From Coleofasciculaceae cyanobacterium (GTDB taxonomy: Bacteria; Cyanobacteriota; Cyanobacteriia; Elainellales; Elainellaceae), in contig DATNPL010000240.1 in assembly GCA_036703255.1 (NCBI GenBank), forward strand, positions 1 through 16,471: a stretch of DNA of 16,471 nucleotides. Direction: 5' to 3'. The notes beneath the pieces are model-generated. The model was not told where the DNA came from. It saw nothing but the letters and a program-made list of their open reading frames with translations, and searched no databases. Positions 1,245 to 4,637 of the stretch are shown in pieces; positions within the stretch are counted from its first letter, which is position 1; each line of letters starts with the position of its first letter. A program made the translations under genes and the position numbers.

Positions 1245-2942
1245 TCACATGGCCAAAGACGCCAGTTCTGCCATTGACACCCTGCCATCTTTGTCGGCAT
1301 CCAGGGTTTCAAACATCAACCCGATCAAGCCTTTGTGAGTGCGCCCGGTGCGTTCGGTCAAAGCCGCCTGTAGCTCCGCTGGGGAAACGTGACCGTCTTG
1401 ATTGCGATCGAGATCCACAAAAGCCTGTTTCACTGCCTGCTCCAGCTCATCTTTAGAAATCTCTCCATCGCTGTCGGCATCCCACTGGCTAAAGTCAACC
1501 AGCATTCGCCAAGCGTCTTTCATGCAGCTTTCCATGATGAGATTCTTGGCGGGGAGACATTGCTCTAGAGCCGGTGCGCCGCCATTGGCTCGGATGTACT
1601 CCATTAGAGGTTTGATTTCATTCATACCCGCCAGCAGAAACTGATAAATGCCCAAGCAATATACTTTGTGCGGGTCAAAGGGGACATGGTCAATGCGGAG
1701 AATTTTGAGACTAGGGTAGGGTTCAATCTCGACGCCTAAATCGGTGTGCAAAAAGCTGGGCACTTCTTGATCGGGGGTGCTGCGGGTGAGGGCGATCGCC
1801 TCCTGCAACACATACCCAGGCACATCAATCACTGCGATTTCGGTTTCAAAGGGCAGCTCTTCGAGCAGGTCGCCGTAGGTGAAGGGCATTCCCGCTGCAT
1901 AATCTTGCATCCCGCGTATACAGCCTCCCTGAAGCATCACCAGATCAACACCCCGCAGGCTTTTTTTGATGTACGAGCACAGGATAGAGGCCACTTTTTC
2001 GGACTGAAAACGGGTGCGTCTTGAGGACATGGACTCTTTCACTTCAAAGATTTCCACTTCCTTCAAAGAGCCTAAGAAGCGTTGGGTAATTTCGACGAAC
2101 ATTTGAGCATTGGGGTCGGCATCAAAGTGGCTGGCAGGTAGCAAATGAACGGCGCTATGCCGCTTCTCTGCCCTGTCCCACCAAACATCGACAACCACGA
2201 CATTGGCGGCATCGGCTCCTGCTTTGACAATTAGGCTTTGACCAATTTTTTCAATAAAAATCTCGTGCTCATGTCCACCCAAAATAACGGGGACATGTCC
2301 GCTGAGTTGCTGATCGGCCTCAATTTTGGCTACGAGATCGCGATCGTCCCCAATGGTTTGATGGGTGAGAGGAATGATCAGCTCAGCTTCGTCAGCGCAT
2401 TTAGACCAAGTTTTTTGCAGGGCCTCGAAAATAGGCTGAATGGTTAAGTTGGTACCCGCTCTAAAAATATCCTTGTCGTTGGTGCAAAACCCGGCAAAAG
2501 CTACCCGGTGATCGCCCACGGCAATTACCTCATACTTCGACAACCGTTGACCGCTGGCATCAATGATGGGCAAATCCAAAATGTTGCTGTTCAAGCATTT
2601 GCCAGTGTAGGTTTTGAAGCGTTCGCACAGCACATCCAGATTGATATCAAACTCGTGATTGCCAAGGCAGAGGTAGTCGATATTGACCACCTTCAGCACA
2701 TCCAGCATGGCTTTGCCGCCGTCCAGGGAGGTAATCATACAGGGGGAGAGAAAGTCACCGCTGAGGGATGCTACCACCACCGCATCTTCGGCAGTCTGCT
2801 TGAGGTTCTGGATGACAGTCTCCACATAGGGATAGCTCTCGATGTCGTAAACGTCGTTAATTGACACCATGCGTAGATAAGTGCCAACGGCCTCTCGGGG
2901 ACGGGGCAGGTATAAGCGTTGAGTCGTCTCGGTTATGGTCAT
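1245..2942 (-). CDS. 5'-nucleotidase / calcineurin-like metallophosphoesterase fused to a C-terminal triple EF-hand Ca-binding module
   Basis: 565-aa ORF with an ATG start. The N-terminal half carries metallophosphatase motifs (SINDVYD; SLSGDFLSP as a GD motif; LCLGNHEFD as the GNHE signature of UshA/5'-NT-type enzymes). The C-terminal 95 aa contain three canonical 12-residue EF-hand loops: DADSDGEISKDE, DRNQDGHVSPAE and DADKDGRVSMAE. No N-terminal signal peptide is evident, so it is probably cytoplasmic. Confidence 0.8.
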   Translation of the reverse strand: MTITETTQRLYLPRPREAVGTYLRMVSINDVYDIESYPYVETVIQNLKQTAEDAVVVASLSGDFLSPCMITSLDGGKAMLDVLKVVNIDYLCLGNHEFDINLDVLCERFKTYTGKCLNSNILDLPIIDASGQRLSKYEVIAVGDHRVAFAGFCTNDKDIFRAGTNLTIQPIFEALQKTWSKCADEAELIIPLTHQTIGDDRDLVAKIEADQQLSGHVPVILGGHEHEIFIEKIGQSLIVKAGADAANVVVVDVWWDRAEKRHSAVHLLPASHFDADPNAQMFVEITQRFLGSLKEVEIFEVKESMSSRRTRFQSEKVASILCSYIKKSLRGVDLVMLQGGCIRGMQDYAAGMPFTYGDLLEELPFETEIAVIDVPGYVLQEAIALTRSTPDQEVPSFLHTDLGVEIEPYPSLKILRIDHVPFDPHKVYCLGIYQFLLAGMNEIKPLMEYIRANGGAPALEQCLPAKNLIMESCMKDAWRMLVDFSQWDADSDGEISKDELEQAVKQAFVDLDRNQDGHVSPAELQAALTERTGRTHKGLIGLMFETLDADKDGRVSMAELASLAM

Positions 2943-2987
2943 GGCACCCTCAATGGAACTTTGCTCAAAACTGATTGGCTGATTGGC

Positions 2988-4637
2988 TTAAATCACCAAC
3001 ACCAATTCCAGAAACCTTTCCCAAGTCAAGTCTTTGCCGCCGATTCGCTGGTGCAAAAAACTAATTTCCGCCTGGGTTAGGGGCGGTTCATCGACGCTGG
3101 CGAGCACGACATTCATTTCCTGGGGCGCTAAGATCCCATCCCCATTGGCATCGATGGGCAAAAAATAAGTGTAAAACTCTTGCAGGTGCGAGACCAGTCG
3201 GCGGTGCCGCAGCAGCAACTCGCCAAATTCAGCAAACTCAATCTCGCCGCTGCGATCGGCATCCATACTAATAAAAGCCAACTCCAGTTCATCCGGCTTT
3301 AGAGGGTACCCAGCTTGCTGAAAGTGCTGGCTGAGTTCAGTCAGGGAGAGCTTGCCATTGCCGTCGCGATCAATTGCATCAAAGACGTAGCGTAAATCTC
3401 CCCGCATTGCCACAGAAGCCTGTCCAAACAGCAGTTGACGAGACCGCCCCTGCATGGCATCCTGCAACTGCTGGCGGAAGGCAGCGATCAGTTGCTTGGC
3501 GGTCAGGTAGCGCCAGCGGTGTTCTTCGGGACTGGCGATCGCGTAGGGTGCCACTGGCACCAGCGACGACAACGACCGCCGCAGCACTAGGAAACAGGCG
3601 TAGGTACCGACATGAAAGGGCACCGCCAAAATTGGCAGACCCAGAGGTGCCAGCCCTAAACCCAGCAACCAGCCGACTAGAGCCGTGACGAAGGCTCCCA
3701 CACTGGCGATCGCAACGCTACGCAGATTCGGCGCATAGAAAATGCCACCAATCGCGATCGCCGTCAGCGCTGAATTGTAGCTCCACAGCCCGGCATACAG
3801 TACGTTTAAATCGGCACCCAGCGCCAACCCCGTCATCAAGCCGATGGCACCCCCCAATACTCCCACCAGCGCCCCTATTGGGCTGCACAGCGCCAGAGCC
3901 AGCACAACCAAAACGGCTGAGGCCAAGCTCCCTGAAAAAAAGATTTGCCCCAGTCCAGTGACCAGTGCCGATAACAGTCGAGTTCCTTCCAGAGTCTCTG
4001 CCGGATTTAGAAATGGCGGCGGTGTCCCAAGCTGAAAGACAGGCTGAGGAATGTAGAGCGCGATCGCCAGAAAAAGGTAGGCAACGATATGAAAGGGAAT
4101 CCCCATGGATGGCAGCTTCCAGTGAACCGCCATCCACAGACCGAGTTTCTGCATTAATACCGTAGTGAGGGCAGCCCCTAAGGCGATCGCCCCCAACCAG
4201 AACCCATTGCCGCTGCCATTTCCCCAGGTGCCAAAGGTTCCCAGAGCCAACCCCACCAGCGCTCCATTAAAGCTATAAATGCCGTTGCGAACACTGGGTT
4301 CATCCAGGTTTAGCCTGTAAGCAGTGAGTGTGGCAGCGACTACGCTAACCATCAAACTCAGCGCCACCCAGCCGGATTGCCAGCCGACCGCAAGCAGAAT
4401 CAGCAGACCACTCACAGGATTGTTGGCGAAGGCAATCTGCCCAATGCCGCGCAAACTGGTGTTAATAAAATCCAGTAGCGATCGTTTTTCCGTAGCGTGA
4501 TTTAGACCTTGCAGCGTACCCATGCAGGGCAAGGGATGGCGTTTAGCGATCGGCCTTGACTGCAATAATTGGGACAGCAGTTCATACAGCGGCAGGGGCT
4601 GAGGAACGGGCTGACTCAGATAGGAAGATTCAGTCAT
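2988..4637 (-). CDS. UT-family urea-transporter-like channel protein fused to a C-terminal EF-hand domain
   Basis: 549-aa ORF with an ATG start. LRGIGQIAFANNPVSGLLILLAVGW matches the UT-family N-terminal signature (compare the mammalian UT-B motif ...ILRGISQVVFVNNPVSGILILVGL). The Gly/Ala/Leu-rich polytopic membrane core shows the two pseudo-symmetric half motifs YSFNGALVGLALG and WSYNSALTAIAIGG. The C-terminal 180 aa or so are soluble, with three canonical EF-hand loops: DRDGNGKLSLTE, DADRSGEIEFAE and DANGDGILAPQE. It lies 45 bp upstream of, and on the same strand as, the 5'-NT-EF gene. Confidence 0.75.
   Translation of the reverse strand: MTESSYLSQPVPQPLPLYELLSQLLQSRPIAKRHPLPCMGTLQGLNHATEKRSLLDFINTSLRGIGQIAFANNPVSGLLILLAVGWQSGWVALSLMVSVVAATLTAYRLNLDEPSVRNGIYSFNGALVGLALGTFGTWGNGSGNGFWLGAIALGAALTTVLMQKLGLWMAVHWKLPSMGIPFHIVAYLFLAIALYIPQPVFQLGTPPPFLNPAETLEGTRLLSALVTGLGQIFFSGSLASAVLVVLALALCSPIGALVGVLGGAIGLMTGLALGADLNVLYAGLWSYNSALTAIAIGGIFYAPNLRSVAIASVGAFVTALVGWLLGLGLAPLGLPILAVPFHVGTYACFLVLRRSLSSLVPVAPYAIASPEEHRWRYLTAKQLIAAFRQQLQDAMQGRSRQLLFGQASVAMRGDLRYVFDAIDRDGNGKLSLTELSQHFQQAGYPLKPDELELAFISMDADRSGEIEFAEFGELLLRHRRLVSHLQEFYTYFLPIDANGDGILAPQEMNVVLASVDEPPLTQAEISFLHQRIGGKDLTWERFLELVLVI

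Follow-up and report, generated by a model that had tools for sequence, protein, structure and literature searches.

In the window analyzed here, positions 1 to 16,471 of contig DATNPL010000240.1 of a Coleofasciculaceae cyanobacterium, three adjacent genes on the minus strand encode a UT-family channel fused to a C-terminal EF-hand module (UT-EF), a 5'-nucleotidase-family metallophosphoesterase fused to an EF-hand module of its own (NT-EF), and a nucleoside hydrolase of the IUNH family. With about even confidence, we propose that these genes form a conserved, cotranscribed cytoplasmic module for nucleotide breakdown that comes with a dedicated pore, and that two of its three products sense Ca2+. 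Because the channel lacks both threonines of the urea filter, it may not be an ordinary urea channel and may instead let out a product of nucleotide breakdown under the control of Ca2+.

The three open reading frames (ORFs) follow one another in the order UT-EF (4637..2988, 549 amino acids), NT-EF (2942..1245, 565 amino acids), and IUNH (1152..166, 328 amino acids). They are separated by gaps of 45 nucleotides (2943..2987) and 92 nucleotides (1153..1244), and a terminator scan found no terminator-like site in either gap. The counts from the promoter and terminator scans over the window do not exceed those expected from shuffled sequence, so the scans are informative only for the absence of terminators within the gaps. 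The earlier note on this DNA, which was made from the sequence alone, had called the three co-oriented genes operon-like on the basis of gaps of 45 and 92 bp. The common strand, the exact gap lengths, the lack of an internal terminator, and the conservation of synteny all agree with that description. Three independent metagenome contigs encode a UT-EF protein identical to that of the window, with the same neighbors each time, and a JGI metagenome contig matches the window.

Residues 58 to 351 of UT-EF (3585..4466) match the Pfam UT family PF03253 (TCDB 1.A.28) with an E value of 3.7e-66 (223.7 bits) over positions 1 to 290 of the 292-position profile, and the domain also aligns with human UT-A and UT-B. 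The AlphaFold2 (AF2) model, which has a predicted local distance difference test (pLDDT) score of 83 and a predicted template-modeling (pTM) score of 0.80, contains the ten-helix inverted-repeat UT fold. When this model is searched with Foldseek, its core superposes on human UT-B (9j22, TM-score on the target of 0.90) and its tail superposes on calmodulin. TM-scores on the target range from 0.85 to 0.90 against human and bovine UT-B, UT-A, and dvUT, and for 9j22, 4ezc, and 3k3f they are 0.86 to 0.90 with a probability of 1.00. The UT signature residues NNP, Q67, Q231, and F70 are retained. The assignment of this protein to the UT family, which the earlier note had made from the sequence alone, is supported by the whole-domain match and by the fold of the model.

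Two helices flank the channel domain. The N-terminal extension (residues 1 to 57, 4467..4637), which is predicted to be cytoplasmic, contains a conserved helix motif, PLPL(Y/H)ELLS, at residues 14 to 25, which varies little or not at all in the alignments at P16, L17, and E19 and is modeled as a helix from residue 17 to residue 25. This extension is missing from the short UT representatives without EF hands; one of these, P0263, starts ~39 residues later. On the other side of the channel, a junction helix (residues 366 to 400, 3438..3542, AIASPEEHRWRYLTAKQLIAAFRQQLQDAMQGRSR; modeled as helical from 370 to 395) leads into the EF-hand domain. Its residues P370, E371, H373, A380, and F387 are invariant, I384 is also among its conserved positions, and R388, L391, and A394 are invariant in an 18-sequence alignment and nearly so in a 65-sequence alignment. 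Both the N-terminal helix and the junction helix are specific to EF-bearing forms. Lysine and arginine residues number 5 in the N-terminal tail, 8 in the junction after the channel, and 1 in the central loop, which is a positive-inside pattern. In mammalian UT-A1, the loop that joins the two UT domains is intracellular (PMC12171576). The charge pattern and the UT topology fit a cytoplasmic location of the EF tail, as the earlier note had supposed.

The selectivity filter is the point at which UT-EF departs from its family. Alignment to human UT-B shows that neither UT signature has the form LPxxTxPF. In the first, LPSMGIPF (4092..4115), G179 (codon 4101..4103) takes the place of the Sm-site threonine T177 of human UT-B, and in the second, LPILAVPF (3615..3638), A338 (codon 3624..3626) takes the place of T339. 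Replacement of these Sm-constriction threonines by valine abolishes the flux of urea, water, and NH3 (PMC12171576). Of 150 representatives that cover the UT family as a whole, 119 retain both threonines (T/T), and the eukaryotic EF-tailed forms are among them. UT-EF also scores only 166 bits against TIGR03441 (Yut), the NCBIfam urea transporter equivalog, for which the cutoff is 274.6. Based on the two substitutions and the subthreshold score, the label "urea channel" that the protein was first given is doubtful. Further positions that differ by filter type are 234 (F versus L), 102, 60, and 163.

The EF-hand modules of both proteins are well supported. UT-EF matches EF-hand_7 with an E value of 1.3e-12 (48.3 bits; cutoff, 30), as well as EF-hand_6 (46.1 bits) and EF-hand_1 (42.9 bits), while NT-EF matches EF-hand_5 in three stretches with an E value of 7.7e-17 (60.3 bits), EF-hand_1 (52.0 bits), and EF-hand_7 (46.3 bits). 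The UT-EF module (residues 411 to 549, 2991..3407) is a calmodulin-like domain of four EF hands, of which the fourth is degenerate, and it aligns with whole calmodulins both by sequence and by predicted structure. Its canonical loops are at residues 423 to 434 (3336..3371, DRDGNGKLSLTE), 459 to 470 (3228..3263, DADRSGEIEFAE), and 496 to 507 (3117..3152, DANGDGILAPQE). In NT-EF, a conserved helix that includes the invariant W478 leads into the EF module (residues 481 to 565, 1248..1502), whose loops are at residues 488 to 499 (1446..1481, DADSDGEISKDE), 512 to 523 (1374..1409, DRNQDGHVSPAE), and 548 to 559 (1266..1301, DADKDGRVSMAE). All six 12-residue loops are canonical, with D at position 1, D or N at position 3, D, N, or S at position 5, G at position 6, a hydrophobic residue at position 8, and E at position 12. 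Among 65 UT-EF sequences, D423, S431, E434, D459, D461, and E470 are invariant, and D425, G464, D496, and E507 are conserved in ≥90%. Among 61 NT-EF sequences, with identities down to 28%, D512 is invariant and G517, E523, D548, G553, and E559 are conserved in ≥90%. EF2 and EF3 of NT-EF are kept throughout the family, including the algal homologues, and EF1 is found only in cyanobacteria and some of the algae. The three canonical loops per protein that were originally read from the sequence are therefore real features of both families, with the position 12 (-Z) glutamate conserved across orthologues, and both modules are predicted to bind Ca2+.

The two modules are not copies of one another. 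The tails share 26 to 28% identity, and the four-EF calmodulin-like layout of UT-EF differs from the tightly spaced three-EF layout of NT-EF, in which loops 1 and 2 are only 12 residues apart and EF2 and EF3 form a normal pair. This rules out duplication of one module from the other and supports independent recruitment, which the earlier note had favored on the basis of the spacing. The UT-EF tail is closer to the N-terminal EF pair of an EF-hand arginase described below (41% identity over 58 amino acids). A lanmodulin-like reading of the EF1-EF2 spacing in NT-EF was also considered. Lanmodulin loops are marked by proline at position 2; the NT-EF loops have no proline there, and the LanM score is 27 bits against a cutoff of 135, so this reading was rejected.

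NT-EF has the two-domain architecture of the 5'-nucleotidases. Pfam detects Metallophos (29.0 bits; cutoff, 21.5) and 5_nucleotid_C (35.1 bits; cutoff, 23.6), and the corresponding metallophosphoesterase and C-terminal substrate-binding domains span residues 27 to 227 (2262..2864) and 304 to 442 (1617..2033). The AlphaFold model has a pLDDT of 90, and Foldseek aligns both of its domains, over ~510 to 530 columns, with 3ivd (Escherichia coli c4898; E value of 2.4e-30, 508 columns), Thermus thermophilus 2z1a, CD73, and UshA at E values of ~1e-30. The metal and catalytic residues D63 (GD), N95, H96, and D99 (GNHEFD), H194, H224, and H226 are invariant. The dimetal ligand set is incomplete in motif I, which reads D30-V-Y32 (2847..2855) instead of D-x-H, and Y32 is itself invariant in 61 family members; with this D-x-Y motif, "5'-nucleotidase" is a family-level label. 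Scores against the NCBIfam equivalogs are far below their cutoffs for UshA (49.5 bits; cutoff, 600), SoxB (48.3; 550), and NadN (30.8; 436), and the CpdB equivalog is likewise not matched. No signal-like hydrophobic segment is visible at the N terminus of NT-EF, which suggests that the protein is cytoplasmic. Homologues from dinoflagellates and other algae (P0185, P0190, and P0183) begin with MGCC, MGCG, or MSCC, and the resemblance of these N termini to acylation sites suggests anchoring at the cytosolic face of a membrane.

The identity of the third product is clear at the family level. It matches IU_nuc_hydro (PF01156) over its full length with an E value of 2.6e-92, and it has both the aspartate cluster DTDGGVDD at residues 12 to 19 and the LHDP histidine. 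It is closest to RihC and RihA, yet its scores are below their cutoffs (228 bits versus 382 to 433).

In order to learn how widely the three genes are associated, we surveyed the UT-EF neighborhoods of 79 loci from GTDB species genomes by tblastn and ORF clustering. The most common neighbors are IUNH genes (42 loci) and genes of the 5'-nucleotidase family (40 loci), and they occur in several orders: UT-NT-NH as in the window, NT-NH-UT, UT-NH-NT, and divergent arrangements. The three-gene unit proposed in the earlier note is thus kept across many genomes in spite of its rearrangement. Of 71 UT-EF copies typed for their filter by alignment, 51 are of the small type found in the window (G/A, G/S, or A/A), 19 are T/T, and 1 is H/T. 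Within 4 kb of the small-type copies, an NT and/or NH gene is found in 40 of 51 cases and both are found in 30 of 51, and an EF-hand arginase gene is found in none. In contrast, the T/T copies have no NT or NH neighbor (0/19), and in 12 of 19 cases an EF-hand arginase gene directly precedes them. In a Microcoleus locus (L032), both UT-EF paralogues occur at a distance of 7 kb from one another, and each is accompanied by the partner typical of its type. To judge from the literature that we found, this partition of UT-EF by filter type and neighborhood appears to be new.

The partner nucleotidase differs by lineage. It bears EF hands in Moorena, Symploca, Nodosilinea, Dapis, Sphaerospermopsis, Leptolyngbya, and Enhygromyxa, whereas in Nostoc, Microcoleus, Microcystis, and Scytonema it is an EF-less 5'-nucleotidase with a canonical D-x-H motif (~21% identity; UshA E value of 6e-44). 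This difference points to selection on the partnership and not to inheritance alone. In two genomes of the myxobacterium Enhygromyxa salina (L057:7184-11617 and L060), NT-EF (562 amino acids), a 382-amino-acid protein with a subthreshold resemblance to LOG/PpnN, and a Gly/Ser-type UT-EF are encoded in a row. Members of the LOG/PpnN family likewise cleave N-glycosidic bonds, and the Enhygromyxa module could be the product of a horizontal transfer in which the nucleoside hydrolase was exchanged for another N-glycosidase-like gene.

The EF-hand arginase that accompanies the T/T channels is a protein of ~510 amino acids with an N-terminal triple EF hand. It matches Pfam Arginase with an E value of 2.5e-49 and reaches 210 bits against rocF, just under the cutoff. 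At locus L035 its gene (8341-9867, plus strand) lies immediately upstream of a co-oriented T/T UT-EF gene, and it was also found at L032, L033, L044, L047, L048, L063, L065, L066, L067, L072, and L076. Arginase releases urea, and the two genes look like a second pair of an EF-hand enzyme and an EF-hand channel. The literature searches made for the main finding, none of which was aimed at EF-hand arginases, turned up no report of such a protein.

Several other genes recur beside UT-EF. Microcoleus-type loci carry a NOX5-like EF-hand NADPH oxidase of ~670 amino acids (L043:5036-7051, L046:4919-6931, and L072:5882-7891), and the same set of loci encodes a histidine phosphatase-membrane-EF-hand protein of ~655 to 690 amino acids, a bestrophin, and a 181-amino-acid EF-hand protein (further coordinates of these Ca2+-themed genes are L046:2792-4759 and L062:6297-7229), so that the surroundings look like an "EF-hand island." Genes for MscS-like channels adjoin UT-EF clusters at L004:6363-7937, L025:7934-9586, L082:7662-9242, and at least 16 other loci, and in Kovacikia and Nodosilinea such a gene comes right after the cluster, which hints at a link to osmotic stress. 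In the Moorena-like locus L071 (11662-12909; 16517-21511), a CinA/PncC gene for a nicotinamide mononucleotide (NMN) deamidase begins 48 nucleotides after UT-EF, and a complete urtABCD urea ABC transporter lies ~5 kb downstream on the other strand. In Kovacikia (L082), xanthine dehydrogenase-like Fer2/FAD/MoCo genes are found divergently upstream.

Both fusions are widespread. UT-EF is represented by at least 120 listed homologue clusters of ~540 to 555 amino acids with 44 to 92% identity, all of which have UT and EF-hand Pfam matches; their genera include Moorena, Symploca, Trichodesmium, Nostoc, Microcoleus, Scytonema, Nodularia, and Kovacikia, and the 79 GTDB loci include those of the two E. 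salina genomes. When the channel core was searched against 1.84 billion representatives, eukaryotic EF-tailed UT proteins of 600 to 940 amino acids were found, among them "Urea transporter 2" of Seminavis robusta, a Rhodelphis marinus protein, and MMETSP transcripts. NT-EF is represented by about 100 clusters, with 55 to 94% identity in cyanobacteria, and has homologues in Symbiodinium, Emiliania, Skeletonema, and Thalassiosira (26 to 43% identity) and in Enhygromyxa (~30%). A restriction of the fusions to cyanobacteria, which had been raised for checking, is therefore not supported: UT-EF also occurs in Enhygromyxa, a diatom, Rhodelphis, and MMETSP eukaryotes, and NT-EF also occurs in Enhygromyxa, dinoflagellates, haptophytes, and diatoms.

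Taken as one system, the three proteins would work as follows. NT-EF, as a cytoplasmic phosphohydrolase of the UshA/CD73 fold, would strip the phosphate from a nucleotide, leaving a nucleoside that the IUNH hydrolase would cleave to yield ribose and the free base. UT-EF, presumably a trimeric pore with Gly and Ala in its filter, would pass a small, neutral, planar nitrogen compound, which could be urea, another amide, or a base. The EF modules would act as tethered calmodulins in which a rise of cytosolic Ca2+ alters the grip on an adjacent conserved amphipathic helix. The candidate target helices are the junction helix (370 to 395) and/or the N-terminal helix (14 to 25) in UT-EF and the W478 helix in NT-EF. 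By analogy with SCaMC, NOX5, and calcium-dependent protein kinases (CDPKs), redocking of the EF module could make the pore open or close and could switch enzyme activity; Ca2+ gating and a role in nitrogen scavenging, like the direction of the Ca2+ effect and the substrates, are put forward here as suggestions. The sister pair would combine Ca2+-switched production of urea by the EF-hand arginase with a urea channel, the T/T UT-EF, and the fit of this pair supports the more general idea of an enzyme with a dedicated outlet.

Some observations weigh against the proposal of a three-gene module with its own pore. The contrasts between the two filter types have Fisher P values of ~1e-9 each that are uncorrected for phylogeny, and many of the Nostoc and Microcoleus loci are close relatives. 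In a rough neighbor-joining tree, which is too crude for counting origins, the small type is found on several deep branches. Eleven of the 51 small-type copies have no NT or NH neighbor, and two genomes, one of them that of Rivularia PCC 7116, carry NT-EF as a stand-alone gene, which indicates that the partnership is frequent and not obligate. The replacement of a metal-ligand histidine by tyrosine in NT-EF means that its phosphohydrolase chemistry may differ. Cotranscription of the three genes, finally, is a prediction made from their spacing and synteny.

An alternative to a dedicated outlet is that UT-EF is an ordinary channel for urea, with ammonia and water, and that its link to NT and NH is indirect, either because purine bases are oxidized to urea or because the genes are coregulated in the scavenging of nitrogen and phosphorus; Gly and Ala would then tune conductance and not selectivity. 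We regard this as a serious but less probable explanation. It is favored by the UT fold and by the retention of most of the signature residues, as well as by the urtABCD genes of L071, the UrtD-like genes near UT-EF in six loci, and the xanthine dehydrogenase-like genes that adjoin the Kovacikia cluster, and the pairing of the sister T/T clade with arginase ties the family to urea. Against this, it is specifically the NT- and NH-linked clade that has lost the T/T filter prevailing in the family, and the Thr-to-Val mutants lose urea flux (PMC12171576), although that result concerns Val and not Gly or Ala. The shortfall from the Yut cutoff also speaks against it, as does the lack of allantoin, allantoate, or urease genes among the recurrent UT-EF neighbors. 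The opposite and more specific possibility is that the Gly/Ala UT-EF is not a urea channel at all and that its UT-fold pore, gated by Ca2+, instead passes a new permeant supplied by its partner enzymes, which we put forward tentatively and think unlikely in this strong form. The candidate permeants are a free nucleobase, a different planar amide (for example, uracil or nicotinamide), or urea that the phosphatase and N-ribohydrolase pair would release from ribosylurea.

The proposal of Ca2+-switched proteins must also be weighed against the idea that the EF hands have a constitutive role in structure or assembly, for example, in Ca2+-stabilized oligomerization or in anchoring to a partner, and do not sense Ca2+ transients. 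Enzymes of the IUNH family, to which the neighboring protein belongs, use a permanently bound Ca2+ in the active site; the degenerate fourth EF hand of the UT tail and the presence of Asp instead of Gly at position 6 of EF3 in many members are also compatible with a structural role. However, free Ca2+ is low in the cytoplasm, where the topology places the tails and where canonical loops would be empty at rest, and the same neighborhoods contain other EF-fused effectors (the NOX5-like oxidase, the EF-hand arginase, and the histidine phosphatase-EF protein). In addition, the conserved amphipathic helices beside both EF modules resemble calmodulin targets. On balance, a purely structural role is improbable. 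The most skeptical explanation, that the fusions and their adjacency are accidents of assembly or annotation, with neighboring EF-hand genes joined by frameshifts and a neighborhood that arose by chance, has a negligible probability. It could draw on Kovacikia minuta, in which the catalytic and EF parts of NT are called as two ORFs and IUNH is split as well, and on several Microcoleus loci with only part of the UT-EF gene. Yet the Kovacikia case is the converse one, a fused gene broken by a frameshift. Full-length architectures recur at 44 to 94% identity in more than 100 independent clusters for each fusion, isolate genomes included; the linkers rank with the best-conserved parts of the proteins; and the exact window protein is present on three contigs. 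The concern about artefacts that accompanied the first description of these fusions is thereby refuted.

The damaged copies deserve a brief description in their own right. In K. minuta CCNUW1 (L082, CP083582.1 3488046-3501692), the NT part (485 amino acids) and the EF part (92 amino acids) are overlapping ORFs, and IUNH is split into 69 and 271 amino acids; these frameshifts are either assembly errors or pseudogenes. In Microcoleus spp. (L068, L074, L080, and L081), only a C-terminal part of a Gly/Ser-type UT-EF lies beside intact NT and IUNH genes, so that in some strains the gene may have decayed or may have been assembled incorrectly.

The region upstream of UT-EF (4638..4960, minus strand) is noncoding and likely contains the promoter and the 5' untranslated region. 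Two blocks are common to the closest relatives (L003 to L006), namely, AGATTTTGATAGT ~170 nucleotides before the ATG and TGCATCT immediately before the start codon. No NtcA box of the form GTAN8TAC was found upstream of the operon, and the two matches elsewhere in the window are at chance level, so that the search gave no direct evidence of nitrogen control. Inspection of the upstream sequence by eye revealed no convincing Pho box-like repeats. A search of the whole window with Rfam at the gathering threshold found no riboswitch or cis-regulatory RNA, and a sensitive scan of positions 4560 to 5800 returned only a chance-level match to atoC (E value of 0.32), which we rejected.

Elsewhere in the window there are genes for an IS66-family transposase (10248..11606, plus strand) and a Mutator-family transposase (14122..15348, plus strand; E value of 5.5e-115), and contig L001 has more transposases just past the nucleoside hydrolase, which places the cluster in a region rich in mobile elements. 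The 1.1-kb spacer between a PNPOx-like gene and UT-EF contains part of a gene for a group II intron maturase (5089..5352, minus strand; GIIM domain, E value of 6.5e-16). No reverse transcriptase domain and no Rfam intron RNA match were found for this fragment, and it is therefore probably the remnant of a decayed intron. A 576-amino-acid ORF (12150..13880, plus strand) has weak matches to major vault protein (MVP) domains (MVP_shoulder, 33 bits; Vault_3; and Band_7) and to MVP chains in the PDB (E value of about 0.002), and it may encode a bacterial vault-like or SPFH protein.

Ca2+ transients in cyanobacteria are well documented, and to our knowledge few direct Ca2+ effectors are known in these bacteria. 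This locus and its relatives provide concrete candidates in the form of a channel and a nucleotidase, to which the sister loci add an arginase, and all of them have a calmodulin-like sensor as part of the protein. If the permeant is indeed new, then this module and the EF-hand arginase pair would belong to a family of modules that combine a calcium-switched enzyme with a dedicated outlet channel and that act as direct effectors of cyanobacterial Ca2+ signaling. The natural pair of Thr/Thr and Gly/Ala paralogues with cleanly different partners offers a natural experiment on UT selectivity and may widen the substrate range of the family. Because both fusions are also found in eukaryotic algae, any such mechanism could be relevant to the way in which phytoplankton link nutrient responses to Ca2+.

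The combination of UT and EF-hand domains was included in a 2026 survey (Biol Direct 21:32, PMC12998343), which lists it, with the EF hands C-terminal to the UT domain, in protists and bacteria (representative, UniProt A0A261KJD6) and suggests regulation by Ca2+. The earlier note had taken bacterial UT channels with Ca2+ sensors to be unrecorded, and at the level of architecture that claim has been overtaken by this catalogue. The survey gives no gene context, function, filter-type split, partner enzymes, or experiments, and nothing on the Sm threonines or the selectivity filter was found in its main text. Our literature search found no paper on the function of UT-EF, on NT-EF, or on the gene cluster, and no description of the conserved placement of IUNH beside a UT-family pore.

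Compared with known systems, the three proteins depart from their relatives to different degrees. The IUNH protein resembles RihA, RihC, and UriH in its full-length Pfam match, its DxDxxxDD Ca2+-site motif, and its LHDP histidine, and differs from them in its subcutoff scores, which do not point to a particular base preference. NT-EF superposes on UshA, CD73, and c4898 in both domains and has the GD, GNHExD, TH, and GHxH motifs invariant, with ~15 to 21% identity to the solved structures of this type; unlike these proteins, it is predicted to be cytoplasmic, has D-x-Y as motif I, and ends in a triple EF hand. UT-EF shares PF03253, ~30% identity over 330 residues, the two-repeat ten-helix fold, and the NNP, GQ, and PF motifs with the UT/SLC14 channels (dvUT, bovine and human UT-B, and UT-A). 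It differs from them in the Gly and Ala that replace the Sm threonines, in the 57-residue N-terminal extension with its conserved helix, in the 200-residue cytoplasmic C-terminal extension made up of the junction helix and the four-EF domain, and in its score below the Yut cutoff. The cargo domains of SCaMC, NOX5, and the CDPKs are unrelated to those described here, and the mechanism that we propose is drawn from them by analogy. SCaMC and the CDPKs are regulated through a self-sequestered helix, and NOX5-type enzymes are activated by Ca2+. Apart from UT proteins, the PDB sequence most similar to the UT-EF tail is that of the regulatory domain of SCaMC-1 (4n5x, E value of 1.2e-11), and the fusions in this locus share with the mitochondrial SCaMC/APC ATP-Mg/Pi carriers, NOX5, and the plant and apicomplexan CDPKs the same arrangement, a tethered multi-EF domain beside a conserved amphipathic helix.

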